Assembly (NCBI GenBank): GCA_038259585.1
Contig: JBBSOQ010000010.1
Location: 30,678-94,677 of the forward strand
DNA: 64,000 bases
From: Flavobacteriales bacterium
Lineage (GTDB): Bacteria; Bacteroidota; Bacteroidia; Flavobacteriales; Flavobacteriaceae
Direction of reading: 5' to 3'
The position numbers were made by a program, and so were the translations under genes. The notes below the pieces were generated by a model. It saw only the letters and a program-made list of their open reading frames with translations, was not told where the DNA came from and ran no database searches. This document shows positions 6,771 through 29,177 of the stretch, piece by piece (position 1 is the stretch's first letter; each line of letters starts with the position of its first letter).

Positions 6771-7625
6771 TTAAAATTCCAGTTCAAAGTAAAGACTACT
6801 TTCTGGGTTTGATTCTGTTACGTCTTCACCTTTTAAAACTTCACCACTTTGGTTCAGCAGTTTCAGGTTTACTTTCCAGTAACCTGTCATTGTTAATGAC
6901 AGTTTCCCATTATACATTTGGGTAGTCGCGTTATACGTTAAATCTACATTGTTAGGCGAACTGTGATTGCCCATTCCAGGCATTCTTGGGTCAACAGTGA
7001 TTTTATAATTTTCAACTACAGGGAAACTCATCATACTCTCCATTTTGTAAAGCACAGCCTCAAAATCATTGATTGCAACCTGTGGCGTTTTAGGGTTTAC
7101 GTAAGCCAAAACATATCTATTGTCATCACTTCCCATAAATACCTGCACTTTATTCAGCCCGTCGGCTGGTTGGGCTACAGAAACGCGGTGGGTTTCGGTC
7201 ATTGCTTGTCCATTCAAATTATAGTTGAGCGTTACATCCCAATATTCAGTGTCATTTCCTGGCATTTGAAAGACAATATGCCCCTTATAAACGGAATTGC
7301 TTTCAGCATTGGTCAACATACTGTGTGGTGCAGAATGCTCCATTGTTTCCATATGCATCATCGGCATCCAAGTTGCTGCAGCATTCGTAACGTATTTATC
7401 GCTAGCCATGTCTTTTATTCTGATGGAAATTTCATTATAACCTACTTCCAAAGCAGTCTTTTCTGAATAGATTTCTACGGAATGGTCTGCGGACGGAAAT
7501 TCATAAATTTTGTTCAAACCTTCTACAGGGTTTGCTTCCATTGGGGTTTCATCATTGTCATCAGAACAACTTACAAATGAAACCGACAGAATTAGGATTG
7601 CGAAAATATATTTTAGTGTTTTCAT
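6771..7625 (-). CDS. Met/His-rich lipoprotein, FixH/YtkA-like, likely copper handling
   Basis: Lipobox FVSC; WMPMMHMETMEHSAPHSM and PRMPGMGNHSSP segments; 10 nt downstream of the TBDR. Confidence 0.65.
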   Translation of the reverse strand: MKTLKYIFAILILSVSFVSCSDDNDETPMEANPVEGLNKIYEFPSADHSVEIYSEKTALEVGYNEISIRIKDMASDKYVTNAAATWMPMMHMETMEHSAPHSMLTNAESNSVYKGHIVFQMPGNDTEYWDVTLNYNLNGQAMTETHRVSVAQPADGLNKVQVFMGSDDNRYVLAYVNPKTPQVAINDFEAVLYKMESMMSFPVVENYKITVDPRMPGMGNHSSPNNVDLTYNATTQMYNGKLSLTMTGYWKVNLKLLNQSGEVLKGEDVTESNPESSLYFELEF

Positions 7626-7635
7626 AATTTTTTTA

Positions 7636-9675
7636 TTAATTAATTGAATAAGAGATTGTTAAATAAAAGTTTCTACCCATCCGTGGAATGTTGTTCCAAT
7701 CGGTATAGGAAGAGTAATACGTGTCAAGAATATTTTCAATTCCAGCTTTTACAAAAAGGTCATTTTCATTTATGAAAAATCGCTTCCCGAAACTCGCCGA
7801 AAGCGTAGCATAAGCAGCACTCTTTGTTTCGCCATACCTAGGATTGAAATTGATTTGCTCTCCAGCGCCATCAACGGATAGCGATGCAGAAAATTGGTTT
7901 TTATAAAAATCGAGGGCACTTCTATATGAAATTGGACTGATTAATGGCAAGTTTTCTCTTTCGTCGTCAATTCCGCGGTGATAGGAAATATTACTCGTTA
8001 ATTTAAACGCGTTTGAAATAGTATACTTTCCCGAAAGCGTTGCGTTGAAAAGCTGCGCATACTCCAGATTGGTATAAATTTTCACGCCGTCGGCGCCAAT
8101 AGTCATCGTGCTAAGCGAATTATCCACTACTCCAATTATATAATTAAAAATGTGGAAATAATTTGCGCCAGCAGTAATTTCAAAAATTGGCTTTTTATAG
8201 GTCACAGAAATATTGGCATCTGCAGAGCTTTCCGTATTTAAGTCTGGATCACCAATGTAATCGTGGTTATCAAAACTATTAAACAAATAAAACCCATACC
8301 CTTCTGAAACCGAAGGCGCGCGTTCGCCGTAAGAAACGCCACCGTTAAAATGAAAATCATTCAACATTTTGTGATATTGCGCAGAAAAGCTTTTCAAGAA
8401 ACGAGTGTTTGTACGATCCATTTCAGGGTAAAAGATTTTCAAACTATTCAACCCAAAATCGTCCGCAACCGTGTTTGAATGATACGCCAAACGTGTTGAA
8501 AGTTTCAGCGAAGCTTTTTCAAAAGCAATATGGTCTTCGGCATAAAATCCAACATCCTTTGTTCGCACATCTGGCCAAGTAAGCATAAACATTAACGGTT
8601 CGTTACTATCAACCGGATACATCGTCATTTCCGCATAACTCTTGTTATAAAACCCATCCAACTTGAAGAAAAAATGATTCTTCTCTTTATTGAAATAGGC
8701 TTGCGTATAAAACCCAGCAGTTTCACTCCATCCCGGCATATCCATATGTATTGGCACATCCGGACGTTTTGTATCGTCCATCACGTGCTTAATATCACTG
8801 TAATACAATTTAGATTCCCAATTGGTGAAATTGCCCAATAAGGTATCTTGATTAAAGCTCACCGAGCTAATCACAGCACGCGCTAAAGACACATCCATCG
8901 TCAATGCGGGATAGCCTACATCATTCGCTTTGTCATATATTAAAGTGGCAGAAATGGATTTATCGGCAGCCAATTTATAGCCAGAATTAATAGAGAAGTT
9001 ATACTTTTCAAATTGTGAAAAAAGCACTTCTTTATCACCTCCAGCATTATAGTTATCAGCTTTCCGATAGATTGCATCTGTATTCAGATAAAATTTTTCA
9101 TCGGAATAGTTTAGTTCACCACCAAAAACACGCATTGCGTTATTGCTTTCAAAAGCACTTTCTACAGAACCGTTCCAGCCAGTCGGTTTAAAATTGCTTT
9201 TGTCCAGTTTCAAGTTGATGCCACCGCCAATAGTGTTTCCAAATGCTGCGCCCTGCTGACCGGAACCAATCTGTGCTTCCGAGAGATTTGACACGTCAAC
9301 ATAAGAAGTTATTGGGTCCATTTTATCTGTACACGCGCCAAAAATCTGCATACCGTCAATGGTTACCGCCAAACGTTCCGAAGCCATATCGTTCATTGTT
9401 GGTTCCCAAGCGTAGGCACCGCGTTTCACCATATTGATGCTAAGCGATGATTCTAAAAATTCGTCTAAAGTAGACAAGGGTTTTCGCTGCTTTTGATGAT
9501 CCAGTTGCTTACCCGCCGAAATTACAATCACCTCATTGAGATGGATTAATTTCAAGCTATCTACAGGCGTTTCTTGGGCGTATAATTTCGGCATAAAAGC
9601 GCCGCAAAATAGTACACTCCAAAGGCAGCCCATAAGCATTCCCCGTGAAGGAAACACACTTATAAATGCTTTCAT
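7636..9675 (-). CDS. TonB-dependent receptor, OprC/NosA-like copper type
   Basis: Plug motif GACTDKMDP (CxxxM) and barrel KHVMD (HxM); C-terminal GRNFYLTISYSIN. Confidence 0.85.
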   Translation of the reverse strand: MKAFISVFPSRGMLMGCLWSVLFCGAFMPKLYAQETPVDSLKLIHLNEVIVISAGKQLDHQKQRKPLSTLDEFLESSLSINMVKRGAYAWEPTMNDMASERLAVTIDGMQIFGACTDKMDPITSYVDVSNLSEAQIGSGQQGAAFGNTIGGGINLKLDKSNFKPTGWNGSVESAFESNNAMRVFGGELNYSDEKFYLNTDAIYRKADNYNAGGDKEVLFSQFEKYNFSINSGYKLAADKSISATLIYDKANDVGYPALTMDVSLARAVISSVSFNQDTLLGNFTNWESKLYYSDIKHVMDDTKRPDVPIHMDMPGWSETAGFYTQAYFNKEKNHFFFKLDGFYNKSYAEMTMYPVDSNEPLMFMLTWPDVRTKDVGFYAEDHIAFEKASLKLSTRLAYHSNTVADDFGLNSLKIFYPEMDRTNTRFLKSFSAQYHKMLNDFHFNGGVSYGERAPSVSEGYGFYLFNSFDNHDYIGDPDLNTESSADANISVTYKKPIFEITAGANYFHIFNYIIGVVDNSLSTMTIGADGVKIYTNLEYAQLFNATLSGKYTISNAFKLTSNISYHRGIDDERENLPLISPISYRSALDFYKNQFSASLSVDGAGEQINFNPRYGETKSAAYATLSASFGKRFFINENDLFVKAGIENILDTYYSSYTDWNNIPRMGRNFYLTISYSIN

Positions 9676-9707
9676 TTTATGATAGTTTAGATAATTTAAT
9701 AAGAATT

Positions 9708-9745
9708 GTCATCTTGAAATATTCCGAGGAAATCTCAATAATGAC
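9708..9745 (-). other. Imperfect hairpin between leader ORF stop and TBDR start
   Basis: GTCAT..TTGAAAT.TTCC / GGAA.ATCTCAA..ATGAC complementarity. Confidence 0.4.
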
Positions 9746-9757
9746 CGTTGCTATAAA

Positions 9758-10135
9758 TTATCCTAACTGTGGCGGATGAAGGATTTCTAAAGTGAAAAGA
9801 GAAGAATTCAAATTTGGCTTGTAGCCAATATTTTTAAAGGAAGTAATTTCAGTTTCTGAAGCAAAAGTATATTCTGAAATATTTTCTGAAATAATAAACT
9901 GGGGAATCTCCGTTTTTAAAGTTTTGCCACTGAATGGATTTTTATCTTCGGCACCAGCTTCTTTTGCCAGTTCTTTGGTTAAATGACATTTTCCGTTGCA
10001 CTGCATTTCTGGTTTGTCTTTGTTTTCACAAAGTACATTTACTATGTAATCATAATTCACAACATACTCAACCACAGGCCACATTGGTTTGGTGAGCATT
10101 ATTAAGGATGCGACTATGAGAATTACATTTTTCAC
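9758..10135 (-). CDS. Putative Cys-containing leader/arrest peptide upstream of the copper TBDR
   Basis: GTG start; hydrophobic N-terminus; CENKDKPEMQCNGKCH; ends ILHPPQLG*. Confidence 0.7.
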   Translation of the reverse strand: MKNVILIVASLIMLTKPMWPVVEYVVNYDYIVNVLCENKDKPEMQCNGKCHLTKELAKEAGAEDKNPFSGKTLKTEIPQFIISENISEYTFASETEITSFKNIGYKPNLNSSLFTLEILHPPQLG

Positions 10136-10170
10136 AAGACAAATATACTATCTATAAGATGTTTTAAGAA

Positions 10171-10182
10171 TGATATTTGTCA
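10171..10182. promoter_or_regulatory. Fnr-like box TGAT-ATTT-GTCA upstream of leader-TBDR operon
   Basis: Centre 36.5 bp from - strand TATATTTG (10140-10147). Confidence 0.75.
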
Positions 10183-10226
10183 CATTTATTGGTCAAATAC
10201 AATAAATATTTTATTCAAAAAATTGA

Positions 10227-10433
10227 TTACATACAGCAGCTTTCTCCTTCGTCTTTTACGCCAAGTTTTTTCAATATTTTTTCCATCAAGCACCATTTTG
10301 TAAAAGATGATTGCAGCAAATTTACGCCTACGAAAGCCGTAAACCACAACCAATTAATATTCACATAAACCGCTAATACAATACTAATCAAAATAAATAT
10401 TCCGGCAATTGCTCTAATATATCTGTTAATCAT
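10227..10433 (-). CDS. DUF2892/YgaP-like small membrane protein
   Basis: Two TM helices, FVGVNLLQSSFTKWCL motif, C-terminal SCCM. Confidence 0.8.
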   Translation of the reverse strand: MINRYIRAIAGIFILISIVLAVYVNINWLWFTAFVGVNLLQSSFTKWCLMEKILKKLGVKDEGESCCM

Positions 10434-10451
10434 TTTATTAAAATTTAAAAG

Positions 10452-10757
10452 TTAAATACTCCGTTCTATCGGTACCACAACCGCGTGTATAGGATTGTTA
10501 GTTTCCAACGTTTTATTGAATTCCATTACCAAACTGAAAAACGAATCAATCTTCTCTTCTTCAGTAAAAGAGAAAAACATGCTGCTATCTGCTCCGCTTT
10601 TTTCCGATGGAAACCAGCTGGAATTCATCATAAAAGAAGATGCATTTTTATATCCTTCAATATCAGAGCCACTGTAGCTCTCAATAGTTGCTTTTTTGAA
10701 AAGTTGCAGCACGTCTTTCTGAAATTCATCTACAACAGTTACTATTAATAGTTTCAT
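10452..10757 (-). CDS. Small PII-like/DUF190-type protein
   Basis: 101 aa, MKLLIVTVV start, terminal NPIHAVVVPIE strand; lies behind the RND pump. Confidence 0.5.
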   Translation of the reverse strand: MKLLIVTVVDEFQKDVLQLFKKATIESYSGSDIEGYKNASSFMMNSSWFPSEKSGADSSMFFSFTEEEKIDSFFSLVMEFNKTLETNNPIHAVVVPIERSI

Positions 10758-10889
10758 CGGTTTAGTTTTTATTGTCTATTACTATTTTTTATTGCCATTA
10801 ATTAATCCGAAGGATTCCAAACTAAGTCGCAAGCAATCAAACAAATTAATTATTACGCCTAAGTCTTATAGCGCAGCGGTCTTATGTCT

Positions 10890-13800
10890 TTACTCTTTAA
10901 AGTTTTTACGTTCAATCATATAGTAAACTAACGGCACCACAAGTAGTGTAAGCACTGTGGAAACAATGGTTCCACCCATAAGCGAAATGGCAAGTCCTTG
11001 AAAAATTGGATCAAAAAGTATTACAAATGCGCCTATTACAACCGTTCCGGCCGTCAATAAAATGGGCGTAGTTCTTACCGCTCCTGCTTCAATTACAGCC
11101 TGTTTCAACGGAATTCCTTCAGCGGTTCTCAGGTTTATAAAATCAATCAGCAATACCGAATTTCGCACCATAATTCCTGCCAAAGCAATCATCCCAATAA
11201 ATGATGTTGCAGTAAAGAAGGCACCCAAGATCCAGTGTCCGAGAATAATTCCTATTAATGACAAAGGAATAGCAACCATCATAACTACAGGAGCTTTGAA
11301 GTTTTGAAACCAACCCACAATCAAAATGTAAATGATGATGATAACGCCCAAAAAGGCAATCCCCAAATCGCGGAATACCTCTAAAGTTATCTGCCATTCG
11401 CCATCCCATTTCACCGTGAAATCGTCTTCAAATTCAGGTTGTTGCAAGTACAGTTCATTCATTTTGTAACCTGCTGGCAATTTTATGTTGTTAAGCTTAT
11501 CGGTCATTCCCAAAATGGCGTATACAGGACTTTCAAGTTCCCCTGCCATATCTGCCAAAACATACACTACCCTTTTTTGGTTTTTTCGATAAATGCTTTT
11601 CGCTCGGGTACTTTCCTGAATATTTACAAGATCGCCCACAGAAATCATACTGCCTGATTGGGAAGCAATTTTCAACTGCGAAATATCCTGAATTGTAGAT
11701 TTTTCCTGTTCATCTAAAGCCAATATAATTCCCACTTGATCTGTTACATTTTCATCATACAGATTGGTTACGGGCTTATCTGAAAGTGCCATATTCATAG
11801 TGTAAACAATCTGTTGCGGCGAAACGCCATAGCGCATTGCTTTCTCTTTATCAATTATAAATTCGTATTCCGTTTGATCTGCTTCCACCATCCAATCTAC
11901 ATCTACTACATCTTGGGTCTCGTTTAAAATATTCTCAAGTTGTTTTGCGACTGCAATTTGCTGGTCATAATTAGGACCGTAAACTTCAGCAACGATGGTT
12001 GAAAGTACAGGTGGTCCCGGCGGCACTTCTACAATTTTTACATTCGCTCCAAATTTTTTGGCAATTTCCTGAATATGTGGCCGTAATTGTTTTGCAATCT
12101 CGTGGCTTTGTTCATCACGTTCTTCTTTATCTATCAAATTCACTTGAATATCCGCAGTATTGCTTCCTCCCCGCAGGTCGTAATGCCGCACCAAACCATT
12201 AAAAGTAATTGGTGCCGATGTGCCAACGTAATTTTGGTAATTTACTACCAGCGGCTGTGTGGAAAGGTATTGTCCAATTTCTTGGGCCACCACTGCGGTA
12301 CGCTCTAAGGTTGTTCCTTCAGGCATATCAATCACCACCTGCATTTCGTTTTTATTGTCGAAAGGCAACATTTTCACAGCAACCGATTTTGTAAAAAACA
12401 ACATCATGGAACCTAAAAGAAGTATGATCGTAGTTCCCAAAAACAACCAACGGGTCTTTTTGTTTTCAATCAAGGGAGTTTCAAATTTTGAATAAATCCT
12501 ATAAATGAAAGTACTTTCCAAAGGTTTTTCTGGTTTAGGCGCTTTTCCTTTTTTCTCTTTTTCACGAAGGAATATATATCCTAAATAAGGCGTAATTGTC
12601 AAAGCTACAAACAGCGAAAGTATCATCGCAATAGAAGCCCCAATTGGCATAGGCGACATATATGGACCCATTAGTCCAGAGACAAACGCCATAGGTAATA
12701 CCGAGGCAATTACAGTGAAAGTTGCCAATATAGTTGGATTTCCTACTTCATTGATAGCATAAATAGCAGCTTGTTTAAACGGCAAGCGTTTCATTTTAAA
12801 ATGCCGATGCATGTTTTCCGCAATAATAATGGAGTCATCCACCACTATTCCGGTAACAAATACCAAAGCGAAAAGTGTAATCCTGTTAAGCGTGTAATCG
12901 AGTAAATAATAGCTCAAAAGTGTTAGCGCAAAGGTAATCGGCACCGAAAGAAAAACCACCAAACCACCACGCCACCCCATAGCAAGCATCACTACGAGAG
13001 TAACAGCGAAAATAGCGCCAATAAGATGCATCAGCAGCTCCAATACTTTATGGGAAGCGGTTTCCCCATAGTTTCGTGTAATTTCTACGTGAACATCATC
13101 TGGGATTAGATTGCTCCGCAAATGATCTACTTTATCTATAATCACATCGGCGATTTTCATCGCGTCTGCGCCTTTTCTTTTTGCCACGGAAATAGTTACG
13201 GCAGGATACTCCGATTGATATTTTGAAGCATTTTCACTTGCCTGTCCATATCCGAAGGAAACATATTTACTTGGAATTTCAGGACCGTCAAAAATAGCTG
13301 CGACTTGCTTCAAATAAATGGGTTGATTCTGTTGCACACCCACAACCAGGTTTTCAACATCTGTAACTGATTTCAGAAAATTTCCTGTAGTCACCAAGAA
13401 TTCCGTATCATTTTTTTCAAAACTGCCCGAACTCAGCTGCTGATTGTTTGCCTTTATCATTTCGGCAACACTCAAAAAGTCGAGACCGCTTGCGGCCAAT
13501 TTATTTTTATCCAGCACCACACGCAATTGCCTATTTCGCCCTCCAATTTTATGGGTGGTGGAAACTTCATTAACCTTTTCAATTTCTTGGGTAAGCTCGT
13601 CGGCAATTTGTTTTAGTTGAAAATCGCTATAATTTTCGCTCCAAAGCGTGATACCTAGCATTGGAACATCGTCAATTGCACGCGGTTTTACAAGCGGCAT
13701 AGTAACACCCGGAGGCATTTGGTCCATATGCTTGTTCATTTCGTTGTAGAGCTTTACGAAAGAGCGTTCAATATCCTCACCCACATAAAACTGAACAATT

Positions 13801-14087
13801 ACCATTGCGCCTTCTTTGGAAGAAGTGGAATACACATATTCCACCCCAGGGATGTTCGAAACCAGTTTTTCCAATGGCTTTACAACTCTAGATTCAACTT
13901 CCGTTGGGGAAGCGCCTGGATAGCCCACAAATATGTCGGCCATTGCCACATCAATTTGCGGTTCTTCTTCACGCGGTATCAAAAACGAACTGTAAACACC
14001 GATGATGAGAAACACAATCATCAAGAGCACCGTAAGCTTTGAGCCTATAAATAATTTGGCAATTTTGCCTGCTAATCCGTCCTTCAT
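10890..14087 (-). CDS. RND efflux permease (AcrB/AcrD/AcrF family)
   Basis: 1065 aa, 12-TM pattern, GIVVDDSII and GIMVRNSVLLIDF motifs. Confidence 0.95.
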   Translation of the reverse strand: MKDGLAGKIAKLFIGSKLTVLLMIVFLIIGVYSSFLIPREEEPQIDVAMADIFVGYPGASPTEVESRVVKPLEKLVSNIPGVEYVYSTSSKEGAMVIVQFYVGEDIERSFVKLYNEMNKHMDQMPPGVTMPLVKPRAIDDVPMLGITLWSENYSDFQLKQIADELTQEIEKVNEVSTTHKIGGRNRQLRVVLDKNKLAASGLDFLSVAEMIKANNQQLSSGSFEKNDTEFLVTTGNFLKSVTDVENLVVGVQQNQPIYLKQVAAIFDGPEIPSKYVSFGYGQASENASKYQSEYPAVTISVAKRKGADAMKIADVIIDKVDHLRSNLIPDDVHVEITRNYGETASHKVLELLMHLIGAIFAVTLVVMLAMGWRGGLVVFLSVPITFALTLLSYYLLDYTLNRITLFALVFVTGIVVDDSIIIAENMHRHFKMKRLPFKQAAIYAINEVGNPTILATFTVIASVLPMAFVSGLMGPYMSPMPIGASIAMILSLFVALTITPYLGYIFLREKEKKGKAPKPEKPLESTFIYRIYSKFETPLIENKKTRWLFLGTTIILLLGSMMLFFTKSVAVKMLPFDNKNEMQVVIDMPEGTTLERTAVVAQEIGQYLSTQPLVVNYQNYVGTSAPITFNGLVRHYDLRGGSNTADIQVNLIDKEERDEQSHEIAKQLRPHIQEIAKKFGANVKIVEVPPGPPVLSTIVAEVYGPNYDQQIAVAKQLENILNETQDVVDVDWMVEADQTEYEFIIDKEKAMRYGVSPQQIVYTMNMALSDKPVTNLYDENVTDQVGIILALDEQEKSTIQDISQLKIASQSGSMISVGDLVNIQESTRAKSIYRKNQKRVVYVLADMAGELESPVYAILGMTDKLNNIKLPAGYKMNELYLQQPEFEDDFTVKWDGEWQITLEVFRDLGIAFLGVIIIIYILIVGWFQNFKAPVVMMVAIPLSLIGIILGHWILGAFFTATSFIGMIALAGIMVRNSVLLIDFINLRTAEGIPLKQAVIEAGAVRTTPILLTAGTVVIGAFVILFDPIFQGLAISLMGGTIVSTVLTLLVVPLVYYMIERKNFKE

Positions 14088-14177
14088 TTTTCGATATTAT
14101 TTATTTTTTTAGGTAAAATGGAATGCCTAAATGATTCAACTTTATTAATTTAAACCACGTAATCGGGCATTTCATCG

Positions 14178-15257
14178 TTATTGTTTAATTGTTATTTTCG
14201 CTCCGTTGAAAAGTTTTCCTTCGGAAGAAATAATATAATTTTCGTCTGCATTCAAACCTGAAAGCACTTCCACATTATCGCCGAACGTACGCCCCAATCG
14301 CAACCAGCGCAGTATTGCCATGTTGCTTTGACTCACTGTGTAAATTCCTGTTAATTGTCCGCGTTTTACTAATGCTTCTTCTGGCACTAAAACCGTAGTA
14401 ACGTCAGTTTTCTTTTCAATAGGAAACTGAACAGTAGCATACATCCCCGAAAGAATGCTTGCATCAGTCTTGTCTAAAACTACTTTCACCAAATACTGTC
14501 CGCCTGTGTTTTTTGCTGAAGTACTCACTTCGGTAACTGTTCCAGGAAGATTTTTATCTGAAGATTTTACAATTACCTGAACTTCAGTTCCAGATTTTAT
14601 TTTTGAGATTTCACTTTCAGGAACCGAGGCGGTAACTTCAAAATTCCCTGGGCCTTCAATTGATATTAAAGCTACGCCGGGATTAGCCATATCGCCAGCT
14701 TCAATGGATTTACTAGTAACAACCCCATTAAAAGGGGCGCGAAGGTTTACATAAGCAAACTGCGATTGCACTTCGTTTTTCATCTGTCTTGCACCTTCCA
14801 ATCTTGCTTTTGCCATTTCGTAACGGGCGCGCTGGTCATCGAGTTCTTTTTGACTTGCACTGTTATCTGCAAACAGGTTTTGGAAACGTTGGTAATCTTT
14901 TTCCGCATTGTTAAAAGCCGCTTGTGCTTCAGTTATTCCTGCGCTTGTTTGCGCACTTTTTGCAGAAAGATCAGAGTTGTTGATGCTTACCAATAACTGT
15001 CCTTTTGTAACTTTTTGACCCACAGTAACGTGAACCTTATCTACAAAGCCCATCATTCGGGTGCTTAGTGTGGCGCTATTTGCTGCTTCTATTTTTCCGC
15101 TTGCGGTTAAAAATGGCGTATTGTTTTCTTCAGCTACTGAACTTACTGTTACTTGAACAGCTGGAGTGCTATCAATTTTCTTTTCTTCGGAAGAATTACC
15201 GCAGCTAGTAAGACCTAAAACTGCTGTCAATATCAAGGTTGAGTATAATAATTTCAT
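14178..15257 (-). CDS. RND periplasmic adaptor (MFP) lipoprotein
   Basis: Lipobox LTSC; GQKVTKGQLL lipoyl half and LRAPFNGVV. Confidence 0.93.
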   Translation of the reverse strand: MKLLYSTLILTAVLGLTSCGNSSEEKKIDSTPAVQVTVSSVAEENNTPFLTASGKIEAANSATLSTRMMGFVDKVHVTVGQKVTKGQLLVSINNSDLSAKSAQTSAGITEAQAAFNNAEKDYQRFQNLFADNSASQKELDDQRARYEMAKARLEGARQMKNEVQSQFAYVNLRAPFNGVVTSKSIEAGDMANPGVALISIEGPGNFEVTASVPESEISKIKSGTEVQVIVKSSDKNLPGTVTEVSTSAKNTGGQYLVKVVLDKTDASILSGMYATVQFPIEKKTDVTTVLVPEEALVKRGQLTGIYTVSQSNMAILRWLRLGRTFGDNVEVLSGLNADENYIISSEGKLFNGAKITIKQ

Positions 15258-15283
15258 TTTTATATTTTTTAAATCTTGTTTGA

Positions 15284-15426
15284 TTTCGGTTTCGTTTTCG
15301 ATTTCTGTTTAAGAGAAATTTTAATCAAGAATTATTGGTTTCCATAAGTAGGTTTCGACTGCGCTCAACCTGACATTTGTTGAGTTTCGATTTCGATTTC
15401 GTTTTCGATTTGGTTTTCGATTTCAA
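15284..15426. repeat. TTTCGN hexamer tracts flanking a half REP-like element
   Basis: 4 hexamers at 15284-15307, 7 at 15385-15426; TTTCGACTGCGCTCAACCTGAC at 15353-15374. Confidence 0.75.
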
Positions 15427-15428
15427 TG

Positions 15429-16733
15429 TCAATTCTTCGTTAAAAATTGCAAATATGCCAAGGCGTAATTATGCTGAAAAACAGTGTTGAAATACTCCAA
15501 CTGTTTCTGAGAAAACTGTGTTTCCGCACTCAACAAATCGGTAGTTCTTTCCAGTCCTTCCTTAAATCTGTTTGTACGAATTCTAAGTGCTTCTTTTGAT
15601 TGTTCAAGCGCCAACTGGGTTAAGTTTAAATTGTTTTTTGCATCTTGAAACATACGTTTTGCTTTGTTCAGCTCTAGTTGACTTTCGGCCTTGTATTGAT
15701 CCAATTCAAGATTGGCTTGATTGTATTCTGCTTTGCTTTTTTGTGTTTTTCCAAAGCGTTTTGAACCTTCAAAAAGATTCCACGTTAAGGCTGCACCATA
15801 TAAATAGCCATTAGCATCTGCCTGAAAAATCTGATCGTCATATAGCTCATAGCTTCCGAAGGCATTCAGCCTTGGCAGAAACGTCATTTTATCTGCTTTG
15901 TAATTTTGTTTATAGGCTTCCGCGGCAAATTCCATTGCTTGAATATCTGCTCGGGAATCAGAAAGCTTTTCACCGGAATTTAATTCCGAAAAAACCATAA
16001 GCGAATCTGTGGGTTTCAAAACACCCACAACTTCTTCATTCATAAGCACCGCAAGATATTCTGAAGCGTTTATCACATTGCTTTTTGCGTATTGCAACTG
16101 ATTCTCCACTTCGGTAACGCGCACTTGCACTGCCAAAACATCACTTTGTTGCAAATACCCTTGCTTAAAACTGTTGTTTGCCAATCGCAAGTTTTCATTT
16201 GCAGCTTTGTGTGCTGTTTCCAAAACGGCTACACTTTTATAAGCCAATTGCAATTGCATATATGCCTTTTCAGTTTCCAGGGAAAGATAGTCGCCCGTGC
16301 GCGCCAACTGCATCTGGGTGGCGTTCCATTTTGCTTTTGCGGCTTTGCGTTGGAATATACCGTCAATATTTATAATGGGCTGTTGCACTTCAAGTTTTGT
16401 TGCAAACATGTTAATCTGAGAAGGATTGTTCAGATTGTTTGGATCAAAATCTGCTTGGGTAACTATTTCTTGGTTTAGTTTAAAACCGAAAGCCATTAAG
16501 GGATTGGTGGTTGACATTCCACTGTAAGAAGCTGATATATTAGGCAAAAACACAGCATTGGTTTGATTGTAATCGCCTTTTGCAGCAAGCACTTGTTGCT
16601 CTCCAATTTTTAATTTATTATTTTGTTGAACCACTTTTTCCATCACCTCAGCCTTGGAAATGGGTACTGTTTGTTGCGCGAAGATGATCGTGGGTAGCAA
16701 ACCAATTAGTGTAATTATATATTTAATCTTCAT
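15429..16733 (-). CDS. TolC-family outer membrane efflux protein
   Basis: Signal peptide, two OEP repeats (FLPNISASY, FLPRLNAFG), first gene of the RND operon. Confidence 0.93.
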   Translation of the reverse strand: MKIKYIITLIGLLPTIIFAQQTVPISKAEVMEKVVQQNNKLKIGEQQVLAAKGDYNQTNAVFLPNISASYSGMSTTNPLMAFGFKLNQEIVTQADFDPNNLNNPSQINMFATKLEVQQPIINIDGIFQRKAAKAKWNATQMQLARTGDYLSLETEKAYMQLQLAYKSVAVLETAHKAANENLRLANNSFKQGYLQQSDVLAVQVRVTEVENQLQYAKSNVINASEYLAVLMNEEVVGVLKPTDSLMVFSELNSGEKLSDSRADIQAMEFAAEAYKQNYKADKMTFLPRLNAFGSYELYDDQIFQADANGYLYGAALTWNLFEGSKRFGKTQKSKAEYNQANLELDQYKAESQLELNKAKRMFQDAKNNLNLTQLALEQSKEALRIRTNRFKEGLERTTDLLSAETQFSQKQLEYFNTVFQHNYALAYLQFLTKN

Positions 16734-24302: not shown

Positions 24303-27300
24303 TTAAAGCGTTAAAAAGTTGATAGCGATAACCGCTTGATTGTAATTATTTAGGTTTTCTAGATGCTGTAGTTCAATTTCATAAGCGTTTTCAAGACTTT
24401 GGATGTATTGAAAAAAGTCTATTTCGCCATTCTTAAAACTTCCGTTTGCAGTTTTTAAGATTTCTTCGGAAAGTGATTTCCCTTCCGTTTCATAATATTG
24501 CAGCGCTTCTTCATATTTTGAAACTTCGTTGAGCAATTGCACTTTTCTGGAATCTAAATGAATTTTATAATCTTCAGCTTGCTGTTGGCTAACATTTGCG
24601 GCAATTTTAGAGGCCTTTATTTTTGAAGCATTGCCGCTGAAAAGCAACGGAATTTTTAAACCCACTTGATAGGCATACAGATTTTGACTCAAACCTGAAT
24701 TGCTTCCCAAAGAATACGAAAGACTTATATCTGGCAGCAAATGTTGCTTTTCAAGATTTTGCTTTGCTTCAAAAAAATCATTTCTATTATTATAATATTC
24801 TATCGCTGGATGTGCTTCCATTCCCGGCAGCGAAAGTTGTAGTTTCTCCAAAGGCTGTTCAGAAATCACCAAACTATCCTTGGATTGCACAGCTGCTTTC
24901 AAGCGCTCTAGTGCAATATTTACATCTTCTTTGCTTTGTTTATAATCAGTTTCCAACTGACGTTGCTTGGCGCGAGCGGTTATTTTTTCTAGATAATTGG
25001 TTTCTCCAAGATCAAAACGACGTTGGGCGGCGTACGCAAAATTTTGATACAGACTATCCAAACTTTCGTAAACGCGTTCCCTGTTTTTCTCAAATTGAAA
25101 CTGATAATATGCTGCCGCAACCAAGCCTTCCGTTTTGCGTTTTTGAAGCTCGTATTGACTGCTTTGCATTTCAAACTGGCGCTGATTTACCTTTTTTTCA
25201 GCAAAATAAACTGTCGGGAAAAGAAAACCTTGCTGTACTCCAAAAACTTCGAGAGGTTCGTTGTTTGGTGCTAAGTTATTCTCGTCAAACTCATAAAAGA
25301 CAGTAGTTTTATCGAAGTTGAAAGCACTACCAATTAAAGCATTTGCTTCTTCTTTTTGAAGCGATGTTGCTTTTAAGCCTGCGTTATTTTCTAAAGCCAT
25401 TGTTTTTAAATCCTCTAAAGTTTTAGAGTTTTCCTGTGCTATTCCTGTAACTCCAAGTAACAATATGATGATGGTTAATGGCAAAGCCTTCTTCTTAGAT
25501 TTTCGAAGTTTTATTTTCTTTTTATCTGAATCAAAAATTGAAAATAGAACAGGTAAAACAACCAAGGTTAAAATCGTAGCCGTTACCAAACCACCAATAA
25601 CAACAGTTGCTAAAGGTCGTTGAACCTCAGCCCCAGCTCCAGTTGAGATTGCCATTGGTAAAAAGCCAAGTGCGGCGGCGGCGGCGGTAAGCAAAACAGC
25701 TCGCAAACGGTTTTTTGCACCCTTCACAATAAGTTCCTTTTTATCTGTCATTCCTTCTTTTTTAAGTTCTTTAAAATGTTCTATTAAAACAATTCCGTTT
25801 AGTACTGCAATCCCAAAAAGGGCAATAAATCCAACGCCAGCCGAAATGCTAAAAGGCATATCGCGCAGCCATAACAATAACACGCCACCCACTGCCGCCA
25901 ATGGAATTGCTGAATAAATCATAAGCGCCTCTTTCACGGAATTGAAAGCGAAATACAGCAAGAAGAAAATTAACACCAAGGCTACAGGAACGGCAAACAA
26001 CAACCTACTTTTTGCGCTTTGAAGGTTTTCAAACTGACCGCCATAATCAATTGTATAACTTACGGGAAGTTGAATATTCTCGTCTATTAATTTTTGAACA
26101 TCGTCCACAACGCTTTGCAGATCGCGACTTCTCACGTTTATTCCCACTACAATTCGGCGTTTGGTGTCATCTCTCGATATTTTCGCTGCGCCTTTTGTAT
26201 ATTTTATTTCAGCGAGTTCGCGTAACGGAACTTTTTCGCCAGATGGGGTGTCAACATAAAGGTTTTGTAGGTTTGAAAGATCGCGACGGTTGTTTTCATC
26301 CAAACGAACAACAAGGTCAAAACGTTTTTCTCCTTCAAAAATACTTCCCAAAGATTTACCTGCAAAACCCATTGCTATCATTTCATTCAAATCTTGAATA
26401 TTGAGTCCGTAGCGGGCAATTTTAGCTCGGTCAAACTTCACATTCATCTCTGGTAGCCCTACTACTTTTTCCACAGTAATATCATCGGCTCCTTCCACAT
26501 TTTCTACAAGGCTCTTTATTTCGTTTGCTTTTTTGTTTAGTATTTCAAGATCTTCCCCAAATATTTTGATAGCAATATCTGCCCGTACACCCGTTATAAG
26601 CTCGTTGAAGCGCATTTCAATAGGTTGGGTAAATTCTACTTCCATTCCTGGAATTATAGCCAAAGCTTCTTTGAATTTGTCGGCCAATTCATTTTTGTTC
26701 TTGGCAGAAACCCATTCGCTCTTTGGTTTAAGGGTAATTATAACATCACTTTCTTCCATAGACATAGGGTCTGTAGGCACTTCGGCAGCACCAATACGGC
26801 TTACTACTTGATCTACTTCAGGAAAGTTTTCTATCAGAATTTTTTCAATATGCGTAGTAATATCGATCGTATTGCTGAGGGAAGTACCTGTTTTCAGAAC
26901 TGGTTGAATTACAAAATCGCCCTCGTCCAATGTTGGAACAAACTCGCCACCCATAGTTGAAAAAAGATAAATTGTTGAAACTAGAATTAATACCGCAACA
27001 CCCAACACCACCCTTTTTGCGCTTAATGCCCAGCGAATTGTTGGTTCGTAAAAACGATTTAGGAAAGCCATAATTCTAACAGAAATATTCTTTTCTGAAG
27101 TTTCCGTTGGTTTTAAAAATAAGGAGGCGGCAACTGGAACGTATGTAAAACAAAGCACCATTGCCCCAATAAGTGCAAAACTGAATGTAAGCGCCATAGG
27201 CTTAAACATTTTTCCCTCTACCCCGCTAAGTGATAGAATTGGGATGAAAACAATTAAAATTATAAGCTGTCCAAAAATGGCAGAATTCATCATTTTTGAA

Positions 27301-28637
27301 GAACTCTTTACTGTAAGATTGTCTTTTGCCAATTGTTTTTCTTCAGAAGAAAGTGAGTTTAGTTTTATAGCATTCTTACTAATTTGAAATGCTACAAACT
27401 CAACAATAATTACCGCACCGTCAATAATAATTCCGAAGTCAATCGCACCAAGACTCATTAAATTTGCATCTACTCCGAAAATGTACATTAACGAAAGCGT
27501 GAAAAGTAGCGACAACGGAATTACGGATGCAACCACCAGCCCCGAACGAAGATTTCCTAGCAAAAGCACCACTACAAAAATCACTATGAGAACTCCAAGA
27601 ATTAGGTTTTCAGCAATAGTGAAAGTGGTTTTGCCTATAAGCACGCTGCGGTCCAAAACGGGGTTTATGTAAACTCCTTCGGGAAGTGATTCTGAAATAT
27701 TAGCTACACGTTCCTTAACAGCTTCAATCACTTGGTTTGAATTGCCGTCCTTGAGCATCATTACCTGTCCGAGTATTTTTTCTCCTTGTCCGTTTCCAGT
27801 AATAGCACCAAATCGTGGAGCGCTCCCGAATTGGACTTTCGCAATATCCTTCACATAAATAGGAAAGCCATTCTCGCTTTTCACAACGATATTTCCAATA
27901 TCTTTCAAGGAAGAAGCCAAACCTTCCCCGCGAATAAAATAAGCTTGATTTTCCCTTTCAATATACCCACCGCCAGAAACGCTATTGTTTTTCTCCAAAG
28001 CGGTAAATACCTCTTGGGCAGTAATATTCATAGCGTTTAGCTTGTTGGTATTAATGGCAACCTCATATTGTTTTAGTCTTCCACCCCAAGTGTTAACTTC
28101 AACTACGCCTGGAATTCCGGAGAGTTGTCGTTTTACTATCCAATCTTGAATAGTGCGAAGTTCTGTAATTGAATATTTATCCTCATATCCAGGTTTTACG
28201 TCTAAGATATATTGATAGATTTCGCCCAGACCTGTGGTTATTGGGCCCATTTGTGGCGTTCCAAAACCTTCAGGAATATTTTCAGAAGCTGATTGTATTT
28301 TTTCTGCAATGAGTTGTCTTGGTAAATAAGCACCCATATTTTCTTCAAATACGATGGTAACCACCGAAAGTCCAAATTTTGAAACGGAACGAATTTCCAT
28401 TACCCCAGGCAAATTGGCCATTTCCAGCTCCACTGGATAGGTTATAAATTGCTCCATATCCTGTGTGGAAAGGTTGCGAGAAGTGGTGATTACCTGAACT
28501 TGATTGTTTGTAACATCGGGCACGGCACCAATGGAAAGCTGTGTGAGCGAATACACACCAAAGCCTATAAGCACCAGCGTGAACAAACCTATGATTAGTT
28601 TATTCTTTATACTGAATTGAATTATTTTTGAGAGCAT
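24303..28637 (-). CDS. czcA: CzcA/CusA heavy-metal efflux RND with fused C-terminal TolC-like domain
   Basis: GAVPDVTNNQVQV, SLGAIDFGIIIDGAVII, FVPTLDEGD; about 400-aa OEP extension. Confidence 0.88.
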   Translation of the reverse strand: MLSKIIQFSIKNKLIIGLFTLVLIGFGVYSLTQLSIGAVPDVTNNQVQVITTSRNLSTQDMEQFITYPVELEMANLPGVMEIRSVSKFGLSVVTIVFEENMGAYLPRQLIAEKIQSASENIPEGFGTPQMGPITTGLGEIYQYILDVKPGYEDKYSITELRTIQDWIVKRQLSGIPGVVEVNTWGGRLKQYEVAINTNKLNAMNITAQEVFTALEKNNSVSGGGYIERENQAYFIRGEGLASSLKDIGNIVVKSENGFPIYVKDIAKVQFGSAPRFGAITGNGQGEKILGQVMMLKDGNSNQVIEAVKERVANISESLPEGVYINPVLDRSVLIGKTTFTIAENLILGVLIVIFVVVLLLGNLRSGLVVASVIPLSLLFTLSLMYIFGVDANLMSLGAIDFGIIIDGAVIIVEFVAFQISKNAIKLNSLSSEEKQLAKDNLTVKSSSKMMNSAIFGQLIILIVFIPILSLSGVEGKMFKPMALTFSFALIGAMVLCFTYVPVAASLFLKPTETSEKNISVRIMAFLNRFYEPTIRWALSAKRVVLGVAVLILVSTIYLFSTMGGEFVPTLDEGDFVIQPVLKTGTSLSNTIDITTHIEKILIENFPEVDQVVSRIGAAEVPTDPMSMEESDVIITLKPKSEWVSAKNKNELADKFKEALAIIPGMEVEFTQPIEMRFNELITGVRADIAIKIFGEDLEILNKKANEIKSLVENVEGADDITVEKVVGLPEMNVKFDRAKIARYGLNIQDLNEMIAMGFAGKSLGSIFEGEKRFDLVVRLDENNRRDLSNLQNLYVDTPSGEKVPLRELAEIKYTKGAAKISRDDTKRRIVVGINVRSRDLQSVVDDVQKLIDENIQLPVSYTIDYGGQFENLQSAKSRLLFAVPVALVLIFFLLYFAFNSVKEALMIYSAIPLAAVGGVLLLWLRDMPFSISAGVGFIALFGIAVLNGIVLIEHFKELKKEGMTDKKELIVKGAKNRLRAVLLTAAAAALGFLPMAISTGAGAEVQRPLATVVIGGLVTATILTLVVLPVLFSIFDSDKKKIKLRKSKKKALPLTIIILLLGVTGIAQENSKTLEDLKTMALENNAGLKATSLQKEEANALIGSAFNFDKTTVFYEFDENNLAPNNEPLEVFGVQQGFLFPTVYFAEKKVNQRQFEMQSSQYELQKRKTEGLVAAAYYQFQFEKNRERVYESLDSLYQNFAYAAQRRFDLGETNYLEKITARAKQRQLETDYKQSKEDVNIALERLKAAVQSKDSLVISEQPLEKLQLSLPGMEAHPAIEYYNNRNDFFEAKQNLEKQHLLPDISLSYSLGSNSGLSQNLYAYQVGLKIPLLFSGNASKIKASKIAANVSQQQAEDYKIHLDSRKVQLLNEVSKYEEALQYYETEGKSLSEEILKTANGSFKNGEIDFFQYIQSLENAYEIELQHLENLNNYNQAVIAINFLTL

Positions 28638-28730
28638 AACTAATTATAATTTTATCTTTTTTCAACAGAAATTGCCGAAAAATGAAATATTAAAGATTGA
28701 TTTTAACCGCTTTGAAAAAGCGTTAGATAG

Positions 28731-28772
28731 TGACCTTATAAGAATTTGGAAATTTTTATTTCCAGAAGGTCA
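28731..28772 (-). other. Hairpin 6 nt downstream of the His-rich leader stop
   Basis: TGACCTT/AAGGTCA outer stem and TGGAAAT/ATTTCCA inner stem. Confidence 0.5.
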
Positions 28773-28778
28773 ATTTAG

Positions 28779-29177
28779 TTATGCAAATTTTGGGGGTTGG
28801 AAAATGGAAACTTTTTCCAAGGAAGAATATAAATTTTGGTAATGGAAAGTGTGAAATTGATGTATGTTTATTTCTGCTTTTAAACCTAGAATTTCAAAAG
28901 GCGCAAATACTACATCATTTAAAACGTGGTGACAAGAAATATGTTGAAAAGGCAGTTCTTGATGCTCCTGATCTTCTTCTTTATGATTTTTTTGATGTTC
29001 CGATTTTAAGGAACCGTAATGTTTTTCATAGAAAGTAAAAAAATCATCACCATAATTTTCTGAATGATATTCAGCATGTTGTACCAAACGCCCGAGTAGA
29101 AAAATATCCTGCATTCCAAACCCTACGCTTTGAAAAACGATAAGTAGAGAAAAAGTTATGGAGAATAGGTTTTTCAT
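28779..29177 (-). CDS. Putative His-rich leader/arrest peptide upstream of czcA
   Basis: Hydrophobic N-terminus, 12 His, LPF motif, ends SIFQPPKFA*. Confidence 0.75.
   Translation of the reverse strand: MKNLFSITFSLLIVFQSVGFGMQDIFLLGRLVQHAEYHSENYGDDFFTFYEKHYGSLKSEHQKNHKEEDQEHQELPFQHISCHHVLNDVVFAPFEILGLKAEINIHQFHTFHYQNLYSSLEKVSIFQPPKFA

Follow-up and report, generated by a model that had tools for sequence, protein, structure and literature searches.

A candidate copper-sensing arrest leader upstream of an OprC-type receptor gene in a Flavobacteriales bacterium, and its family in Bacteroidota

The leader open reading frame and its operon

The DNA analysed here, referred to as the window, is a stretch of 64,000 nucleotides from a Flavobacteriales bacterium (assembly GCA_038259585.1, contig JBBSOQ010000010.1). 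Its minus strand contains an open reading frame (ORF) of 125 amino acids (positions 9758-10135, GTG start, TAA stop), which we have designated the leader. This ORF heads an operon in which it is followed by genes encoding a TonB-dependent receptor (TBDR) and a YtkA-like lipoprotein. The translation of the leader is MKNVILIVASLIMLTKPMWPVVEYVVNYDYIVNVLCENKDKPEMQCNGKCHLTKE...FTLEILHPPQLG followed by the stop; it can also be written MKNVILIVASLIMLTKPMWPVVEYVVNYDYIVNVLCENKDKPEMQCNGKCHLTKE...SLFTLEILHPPQLG. A sequence-only reading of the window had described a candidate copper-sensing arrest leader here, analogous to CruR of Bordetella, as a 125 amino acid ORF at the head of the operon with a hydrophobic N-terminus, a C-x9-C-x3-C-H cluster and ILHPP followed by three residues and the stop, and each of these features was found in the sequence. 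It had given the span as 9708-10135; the upper bound agreed with the minus-strand GTG ORF, whereas 9708 falls in an intergenic hairpin beyond the ORF end at 9758.

Three segments could be distinguished in the leader protein. The first is a putative N-terminal export signal or anchor (10088-10132, minus strand) composed of MK, 12-13 hydrophobic residues and K-P-x-x-P, with the hydrophobic stretch at residues 4-15, after the MK. The hydrophobic N-terminus and the K/R-P..P boundary were kept across the leader family, a signal peptide or signal anchor being judged from hydrophobicity and from the helix in the AlphaFold2 model. This N-terminal stretch appears to be genuinely translated, since the changes between orthologues were synonymous or conservative and profile matches began at position 1-5 across the phylum. 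The second segment is a putative metal-sensor motif (9983-10030, minus strand), L-C36-E-N-K-D-K-P-E-M-Q-C46-N-G-K-C50-H51, in which the cysteines follow the pattern C36-x9-C46-x3-C50-H51. The third is a C-terminal arrest-type module (residues 105-122; 9770-9823, minus strand) that terminates in I-L-H-P-P. The two prolines are encoded by CCG (9775-9773) and CCA (9772-9770), and H120-P121-P122 is followed by Q-L-G and then TAA.

An AlphaFold2 model built with the family alignment predicted a confident N-terminal helix at residues 2-26 (predicted local distance difference test score, pLDDT, of about 90), further short helices at residues 28-33 and 49-63, and coil from approximately residue 64 to the C-terminus (pLDDT ~60). 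The model as a whole was mostly one helix and coil, with a predicted template modelling score of 0.33. The predicted anatomy is thus that of a sensor, a spacer and a tunnel segment, and not that of a globular protein.

The gene following the leader (7636-9675, minus strand, ATG at 9675) encodes a 679 amino acid OprC-type TonB-dependent copper receptor. Its top NCBIfam model was TIGR01778 (TonB-copper; 1.2e-31), with a score under the cut-off (110 vs 472), and its matches in the PDB were all OprC. Alignment showed that it keeps the four OprC copper ligands as CxxxM (GACTDKMD) and HxM (KHVMD); CxxxM-HxM is the copper-binding site of OprC (PMC8610252, PMC11836926). The final gene of the operon (6771-7625, minus strand) encodes a YtkA/CtaK-like lipoprotein of 284 amino acids that matched PF13115 (YtkA) at 8.8e-9. 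The YtkA domain and the lipoprotein CtaK have been implicated in delivery of copper to the CuA site of cytochrome oxidase (PMC13344008).

Analysis of the region upstream of the leader revealed two boxes on the minus strand. The -7 promoter box TATATTTG (TAnnTTTG; 10140-10147) lies 4 nucleotides before the GTG start, and TAnnTTTG is the Bacteroidota-type -7 promoter consensus. A Crp/Fnr-like box, GTGACAAATATCAT (GTGAY-N4-RTCAT; 10170-10183), lies 22 nucleotides upstream of it. GTGAY-N4-RTCAT had one exact match in the window; as shuffled sequences gave a mean of 0.35 matches, with at least one in 29 of 100 shuffles, a single match is not unexpected by chance. The Fnr-like box that the sequence-only reading had pointed out was, however, kept in all 16 orthologous promoters of the Aequorivita clade while its flanks diverged. 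The -7 box and its distance of 4-5 nucleotides to the start codon, itself a conserved GTG, were likewise kept in 16 of 16 loci, with 22-24 nucleotides between the two boxes. The conservation of both boxes directly upstream of the GTG argues that the leader has its own promoter, of the Crp/Fnr-dependent type. Since the -7 box is merely 4-5 nucleotides before the start codon, the operon mRNA is probably leaderless, or nearly so, and GUG-initiated.

Directly upstream on the same strand is another operon (10227-16733, minus strand) that encodes TolC-like, MFP and RND (ACR_tran) proteins; its last genes code for a small protein of the PG0541 family and a YgaP-like/DUF2892 membrane protein. A 91-nucleotide gap containing the leader promoter divides this RND operon from the leader operon. 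A PAS histidine kinase and a REC-cNMP-Crp (REC-Crp/Fnr) regulator, the latter at 4-1053, are encoded at 4-2287 of the window. They may act on the Crp/Fnr-like box, with O2 as a possible signal, as in the AND gate for low O2 and low copper that the sequence-only reading had put forward.

Extent, conservation and gene context of the leader family

No Pfam (E <= 0.1) or NCBIfam model matched the leader, and a profile search of PDB sequences with it returned no matches. The leader shared words with 397 clusters at 90% identity, the nearest of which were from Aequorivita, and at E <= 1e-3 an exhaustive phmmer search returned 4,079 representatives of clusters built at 50% identity. Searching with a profile built from 71 members detected the family in 139 of the 401 Bacteroidota genomes sampled, spread over 70 of 179 genera; a genome contained at most three copies, and that of the window has a single copy.

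Conservation was counted in the 150 best representatives of the 50%-identity clusters, with no selection for any motif. The sequence-only reading had looked to conservation of HPP or RPP and of the cysteines as a mark of an arrest leader, and both were borne out. The cysteine motif was present in 149 of the 150 representatives, with all three cysteines invariant. Two adjacent prolines (PP) were found within 8 residues of the C-terminus in 134, and in 113 of these they were 2-4 residues from the end. The residue preceding PP was H (54), R (29), K (16) or Q (10) in 109 of the 134 and A in a single one, while position -2, counted back from PP, was F (66), L (33), I (8) or S (5), with A and G not among the commonest residues. 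Most of the 16 exceptions that lacked PP there had atypical lengths and seem to be metagenomic fragments, cut short or shifted in frame. Between the third cysteine and PP the distance was 67-70 residues in 112 of the 134 representatives and 63-70 residues in an independent phylum-wide sample. PP was also located within 6 residues of the stop in 27 of the 28 leaders of that sample; the other, L099, has PPP 8 residues before the stop. The third positions of the PP codons differed among orthologues, so the constraint appears to act on the peptide.

The profile anchored on PP divided the protein into three zones. The N-terminal zone, at 3-5 bits per position, reads [KR]-P-x-x-P-x-x-E-Y-x-x-N-Y-D-Y-I-x-x-x-L-C-x-N-K-D-K-P-E-L-x-C-N-G-K-C-[HY]-L, and the C, N, C, G and C of the sensor motif were invariant in 134 of 134 anchored representatives (3-5 bits per position). 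The linker zone (residues ~64-105) carried 0.1-0.4 bits, as did positions -16 to -30, and was predicted to be unstructured, yet its length was fixed. The last ~16 residues were moderately conserved as Y(-15) N(-13) L(-12) Y(-11) ... [IVL](-3) [FL](-2) [HRKQ](-1) PP.

The loci of named genomes were gathered with an 11-sequence alignment. Among these 80 loci the leader was always the first gene on its strand (77 of 77 where the ORF could be located), and the gap following it was mostly 60-300 nucleotides. Five arrangements were found downstream. The first, an OprC-like TBDR followed by a YtkA-like lipoprotein, is that of Aequorivita, Flagellimonas, Arenibacter and others, and in Flavobacterium the lipoprotein and the receptor occur in reverse order. 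The third arrangement consists of MbnP (PF20243, 1e-45), an MbnH-type di-haem peroxidase and a protein of ~320 amino acids. The fourth and fifth are another TIGR01778-like TBDR, and a TBDR followed by a PepSY_TM protein. The CxxxM motif was present in 41 of 50 TBDRs downstream of family leaders. In the distant lineages of the phylum-wide sample, YtkA-like lipoproteins, MbnP and TBDRs were again found downstream. The synteny with metal-linked receptors expected of a CruR analogue was therefore recovered, in that the family heads copper-linked operons with the same repertoire of neighbours as DUF2946/CruR.

Further observations were made on these operons. The third gene of the leader-MbnP-MbnH operons of Flavobacterium and Zobellia (L042:9555-10514(+), L019:9480-10499(+)) is conserved at ~320-340 amino acids, and its product had no significant Pfam or NCBIfam match. 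In some genomes outside Flavobacteriaceae the gene after the leader encodes a protein of ~300-350 amino acids in which a signal peptide is directly followed by A-C-D-x-C-G-C (L102:514-1440(-), L103:389-1435(-), L106:563-1459(-)). The L102 protein, which was scanned against Pfam, had no match; this type may be a candidate copper-linked envelope protein. In several genomes two leaders of the family share a strand, separated by 2-4 kb (G027:C2:233170-235994, G211:C1:3138504-3141010, G271:C55:437099-439834, G051:C12:527290-531420). These are presumably tandem leader-controlled operons, with copper-uptake modules in series.

Pairing between the leader stop and the next start codon

The stop codon of the leader is separated from the TBDR ATG at 9675 by a gap of 82 nucleotides, in which the sequence-only reading had noticed a hairpin. 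Folding upheld this, as the gap region formed a long hairpin with a folding energy of -34 kcal/mol over 161 nucleotides (z = -2.8; equally stable structures in 2 of 200 shuffles). The hairpin extends from 9684 to 9768 on the minus strand, with its 5' base at 9768-9751 and its 3' base at 9702-9684. The 5' base is made up of the Q-L-G codons, the TAA stop and the 7 nucleotides beyond it, while the 3' base stops 8 nucleotides short of the TBDR AUG. A search of 9676-9757 for an intrinsic-terminator-like site predicted none.

A like hairpin architecture with quite different sequences was found in other genera. Its arms are GGCCUAAUUCAA and UUGAAUUAGUCC in locus L018, GGGCUAAUUCGAU and AUUGAAUUGGUCU in locus L036, and UUCAUUUCUUAAA and UUUAAGAAAUGAA in Flavobacterium, where the start codon itself is paired. 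The pairing was examined across 56 non-redundant loci with an alignment-free duplex test, in which a 26-nucleotide window around the leader stop was folded against a 37-nucleotide window ending at the next start codon in all combinations of windows, start codons being picked by a signal-peptide heuristic. An earlier search, in which the 3' end of the leader was compared with 320 nucleotides downstream, had been swamped by spurious pairings within coding sequence and was replaced by one using the 34 nucleotides before start codons. Cognate duplexes had a mean of -7.57 kcal/mol compared to -5.13 kcal/mol for non-cognate duplexes (permutation p = 5e-5; Mann-Whitney p = 1.6e-8). Shared ancestry cannot generate complementarity from arm to arm, but it does lower the number of independent observations.

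A duplex of -7 kcal/mol or stronger was present in 46 of 68 loci. In these 46 the first paired nucleotide was at +6 to +16 from the first Pro codon, a range whose lower bound is partly set by where the arm was cut, so that a ribosome holding Pro-Pro in its P and A sites would cover the start of the 5' arm or have it at the border of its footprint. The last paired nucleotide fell between -21 and +4 relative to the AUG, and 42 of the 46 loci had it at -12 or closer. In Bacteroidota, ribosomes work without Shine-Dalgarno pairing, and initiation is tuned by mRNA structure and upstream nucleotides, including in F. johnsoniae (PMC6847099, PMC7797042); masking of the TBDR start region should for this reason be an effective switch.

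A second leader-type ORF was found elsewhere in the window. This His-rich ORF of 132 amino acids (28779-29177, minus strand) ends ..YQNLYSSLEKVSIFQPPKFA before its stop and precedes a 1,444 amino acid CzcA-CzcC fusion (24303-28637). Its His-rich N-terminal part is unrelated to the three-cysteine (Cys3) domain of the leader. Its last 33 residues (..FHYQNLYSSLEKVSIFQPPKFA) aligned with the end of the Cys3 leader (BLASTP E = 0.002), and this C-terminal module is the sole part common to the two proteins. The 141-nucleotide gap after the His-rich ORF (28638-28778) folded with z = -6.2. In its closing helix GCA-UAA-CUAA, consisting of the last codon, the stop and the next 4 nucleotides, pairs with UUAGUU-AUG-C, which includes the czcA start codon. 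That an unrelated sensor, placed before an efflux gene and not an uptake gene, carries the same cassette and stop/start helix argues that the C-terminal cassette is a portable cis-acting device.

Proposed arrest mechanism, related systems and rival explanations

What comparison of the loci shows is that the motifs keep their spacing and their place with respect to the stop, that the leader comes first in copper-linked operons, and that a helix joins stop and start. From these, and by analogy with characterised systems, we consider it probable that the 125 amino acid ORF is an arrest leader that senses copper, resembling CruR in its logic and CutF or SecM in its output by unmasking of a hairpin. 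The leader would be cis-acting, its nascent chain sensing copper and controlling translation of the OprC-type receptor and, through the receptor, that of the YtkA-like chaperone. Transcription would start at the Crp/Fnr-type promoter, at the GTG or a few nucleotides from it, and the N-terminal signal would bring the Cys3 domain (residues ~20-58) to or through the membrane cotranslationally. At P121-P122 the tunnel-resident module (..NL.....ILH-PP) would slow or arrest peptide-bond formation, as its conservation and the analogy to arrest at the RAPP, CruR and CutF motifs suggest. A ribosome stalled here would cover the next ~10 nucleotides, which are the 5' base of the hairpin, while the 3' base sits at -23 to -9 from the TBDR AUG. 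The stall would open the base of the helix and free the TBDR start region, and TBDR translation would be on; the pairing comes from comparison and the effect on translation is what we infer, given that Bacteroidota ignore Shine-Dalgarno sequences and need an unstructured start region for initiation.

When copper is sufficient, binding of copper to the Cys3 domain, or folding of this domain, ~68 residues from PP, would pull on the chain and release the arrest. The ribosome would then terminate, the hairpin re-form and the uptake genes be off. Since the genes under control serve uptake, they should be on at low copper, a polarity that CruR shares. The ~68-residue spacer approximates the length of the tunnel plus that of the translocon, so that, with the ribosome at PP, the Cys3 domain would lie immediately beyond the membrane.

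The closest functional precedent for this proposal is CruR (Bp2923, DUF2946/PF11162) of Bordetella pertussis (PMC9426467), for which arrest has been obtained in vitro (PMC12992588). Both are upstream ORFs (uORFs) of ~110-145 amino acids placed first in copper-uptake operons, with neighbours that are OprC-type or other TonB-dependent transporters (TBDTs), PepSY_TM proteins, MbnP/H and copper chaperones (for CruR, PMC9426467). They share an N-terminal export signal, which is putative here, a cysteine motif, a long intergenic gap, a spacer of tightly kept length that leads to a C-terminal xxPP motif, itself 3 residues short of the stop, and, as the expected logic here, expression at low copper. 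They differ in the cysteine motif (C-x9-C-x3-C as opposed to CXXC, which was absent from the Cys3 leader family, where three invariant cysteines are found instead), in the proline motif (Phi-[HRKQ]-PP, in the window LHPP, QLG and the stop, as opposed to RAPP) and in the spacer, which is ~68 residues here and 45 +/- 1-2 in CruR (PMC9426467). The output of CruR is Rho-dependent termination (PMC9426467), whereas the RNA anatomy here points to unmasking of a start site.

The two families also differ in their distribution, the Cys3 family being confined to Bacteroidota, a phylum in which PF11162 is rare and was found in 5 of 201 sampled genomes. Membership of DUF2946 was rejected, as 0 of 71 family members matched PF11162 at E <= 1, and homology was rejected as well, since hhalign gave a probability of 0.25% when the family profile was compared with 5 DUF2946 sequences from Bacteroidota. 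PF11162 is absent from the window's own genome. The sequence-only designation of a CruR analogue holds for analogy (context, spacing and PP position) but not for any detectable homology, and the RNA output looks like that of CutF or SecM and not like the Rho-type output of CruR. The DUF2946 proteins of the 5 Bacteroidota genomes (L111-L115) are genuine ones, their tails being canonical (SRAPP or RGPP) and their motifs CxxC or His-rich; some of these genomes carry the Cys3 family too, at other loci.

CutF of Rhodobacter capsulatus resembles the proposed leader in its RNA; its stalling melts a stem-loop that masks the cutO ribosome-binding site (PMC9973294; bioRxiv 10.1101/2025.02.05.636593). 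Common to both are an exported nascent chain, a cysteine copper motif and a C-terminal proline motif, although export and the copper role are inferred here, and a stem-loop over the next gene's start region, placed where a ribosome at PP can reach it. The window ORF passes the CutF-like filters of PMC9973294, being under 150 amino acids (125) with PP in the last 15 residues (121-122) and a same-strand gene within 1 kb (82 nucleotides). CutF, in contrast, has a CxxxC motif and a PPP-rich tail, masks a Shine-Dalgarno site, which Bacteroidota do not use, and precedes a detoxifying multicopper oxidase with copper enhancing its stalling, which is the opposite polarity. The catalogue of the CutF paper holds 5,334 'CutF-like' proteins, and 19% of its list D are Bacteroidota with RND and TonB-type neighbours (PMC9973294). 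The Cys3 family, or the His-rich one, may already be among these; the main text of that paper does not describe the Cys3 family, and a search of the literature found no experimental work on any Bacteroidota member.

The RAPP-like ('RQH') Sec/YidC arrest peptides, which include SecM, ApdA and ApdP (PMC10987492, PMC12992588), likewise have an N-terminal localisation signal, a C-terminal arrest-type motif ending in PP a few codons before the stop, and a downstream gene controlled via the stalled ribosome, as proposed here. Their motif is [R/Q/H]-[A/G]-P-P, whereas here the basic or polar residue adjoins PP and follows two hydrophobic residues, and the downstream genes here are for metal handling and not for protein export. 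A 2025 survey reported that copper-linked RAPP/RGPP uORFs are lacking in Bacteroidota (PMC12992588).

Several points weigh against an arrest leader at this locus. H/R/K/Q-PP is not among the characterised strong arrest motifs (RAPP, RGPP, RAGP), and PP alone may give just a short pause relieved by elongation factor P. Conservation of the sensor domain goes far beyond what a simple spacer would need and may point to a stable protein with a function of its own. The hairpin might do no more than couple translation of the two genes, with no regulated arrest involved; the duplex was weaker than -7 kcal/mol in 22 of 68 loci, and the nearest position of the 5' arm owes something to how the arm was cut. 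RNAalifold on 11 gaps of the Aequorivita clade gave no consensus structure, because the apical region of the hairpin varies and aligns poorly, and from clade to clade the register is shifted.

The main rival to an arrest leader is a stable, exported small copper-binding accessory protein or chaperone, anchored or periplasmic, of the TBDR, MbnP or YtkA systems, with [HRKQ]PP as a docking or structural element and the hairpin as ordinary coupling. The very strong conservation of the N-terminal 60 residues (3-5 bits), which are predicted to be helical with good confidence, is in keeping with such a protein, and co-occurrence with copper-handling proteins would fit a partner protein equally well. 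It does not account for residues ~64-105, which are poorly conserved, fixed in length and predicted to be coil, or for the constant placing of PP, 2-4 codons before the stop in almost every member. The ORF is, moreover, always first and always followed by a long structured gap, with its stop region pairing with the next start, and the same C-terminal module occurs on an unrelated His-rich domain before an efflux pump, as a portable cis-acting cassette would. We regard a stable protein as unlikely.

A leader that does arrest ribosomes could have a transcriptional output like that of CruR, in which case the stalled ribosome would block Rho, or an attenuator, within the gap, and the role of the hairpin would be incidental or one in RNA stability. 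CruR itself, which stands before a copper TBDT and acts through Rho-dependent termination, is the precedent for this, and the gaps, at 60-300 nucleotides, are long. The gap is, however, AU-rich and C-poor, with no intrinsic-terminator-like site in 9676-9757, and the conserved feature is the pairing of the stop region with the start region, including the AUG in Flavobacterium, which is a signature of translational masking as in CutF, SecM and MifM. A transcriptional output is accordingly rated as quite improbable.

An equally low probability is given to a nascent-chain sensor of a signal other than copper, such as periplasmic thiol/disulfide redox state, another thiophilic metal (Zn, Ag or Cd) or export capacity. 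Three invariant cysteines could provide a disulfide and one free thiol, the Crp/Fnr-type box and the nearby PAS kinase and REC-Crp/Fnr regulator suggest a redox or O2 context, and copper specificity does not extend to every CutF-like protein (PMC9973294). The genes under control are, in contrast, copper-specific throughout the phylum, namely OprC receptors with CxxxM-HxM, MbnP/MbnH, YtkA/CtaK-like lipoproteins and PepSY_TM proteins. The ribosomal precursor of a chalkophore-like copper-binding natural product, a notion that draws on the first position of the ORF in operons with methanobactin-associated MbnP/MbnH homologues and a TonB-dependent receptor, was rejected as highly improbable, since the window operon, with just a TBDR and a YtkA-like gene, has no MbnB/MbnC-type or other modifying enzyme and since 125 amino acids with an export signal, fixed spacing and PP near the stop have no role in a precursor peptide.

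The copper-sensing arrest leader remains the reading that we favour, and the family would then be a phylum-specific analogue, unrelated in sequence, of copper-sensing arrest leaders, with a CruR-like context and a CutF-like RNA output. More tentatively, and with somewhat less than even confidence, we suggest that Bacteroidota may own a modular class of nascent-chain metal sensors that is not homologous to DUF2946. In such a class a portable arrest cassette (..Y.NLY......Phi-Phi-[HRKQ]-PP and 2-4 residues) would be carried on interchangeable exported sensors, Cys3 before copper uptake and His-rich before CzcA-type efflux, with a long-range helix between the leader's stop region and the next gene's start codon region as the output. 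Initiation could be regulated in this way, possibly on leaderless mRNAs that begin with GUG, although the ribosomes of the phylum ignore Shine-Dalgarno sequences.

To our knowledge, the copper-sensing arrest leaders described so far are two proteobacterial DUF2946 proteins, CruR and CutF. If the proposal is true, the family fills the Bacteroidota gap in copper-linked arrest leaders, being present in about a third of the sampled genomes and often in 2-3 copies, and does so with Cys3 as its sensor and Phi-[HRKQ]-PP as its stall motif, both unlike the known ones, which would represent convergent evolution of one regulatory idea. It would enlarge the set of natural arrest sequences and show how post-transcriptional control is arranged where Shine-Dalgarno recognition is absent from a phylum. 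The fixed spacer of ~68 residues would offer a direct handle on where copper is sensed, on the periplasmic side of the translocon or elsewhere. The OprC-type receptors, MbnP/MbnH and YtkA-like lipoproteins would then constitute a copper-starvation regulon of marine and soil flavobacteria.

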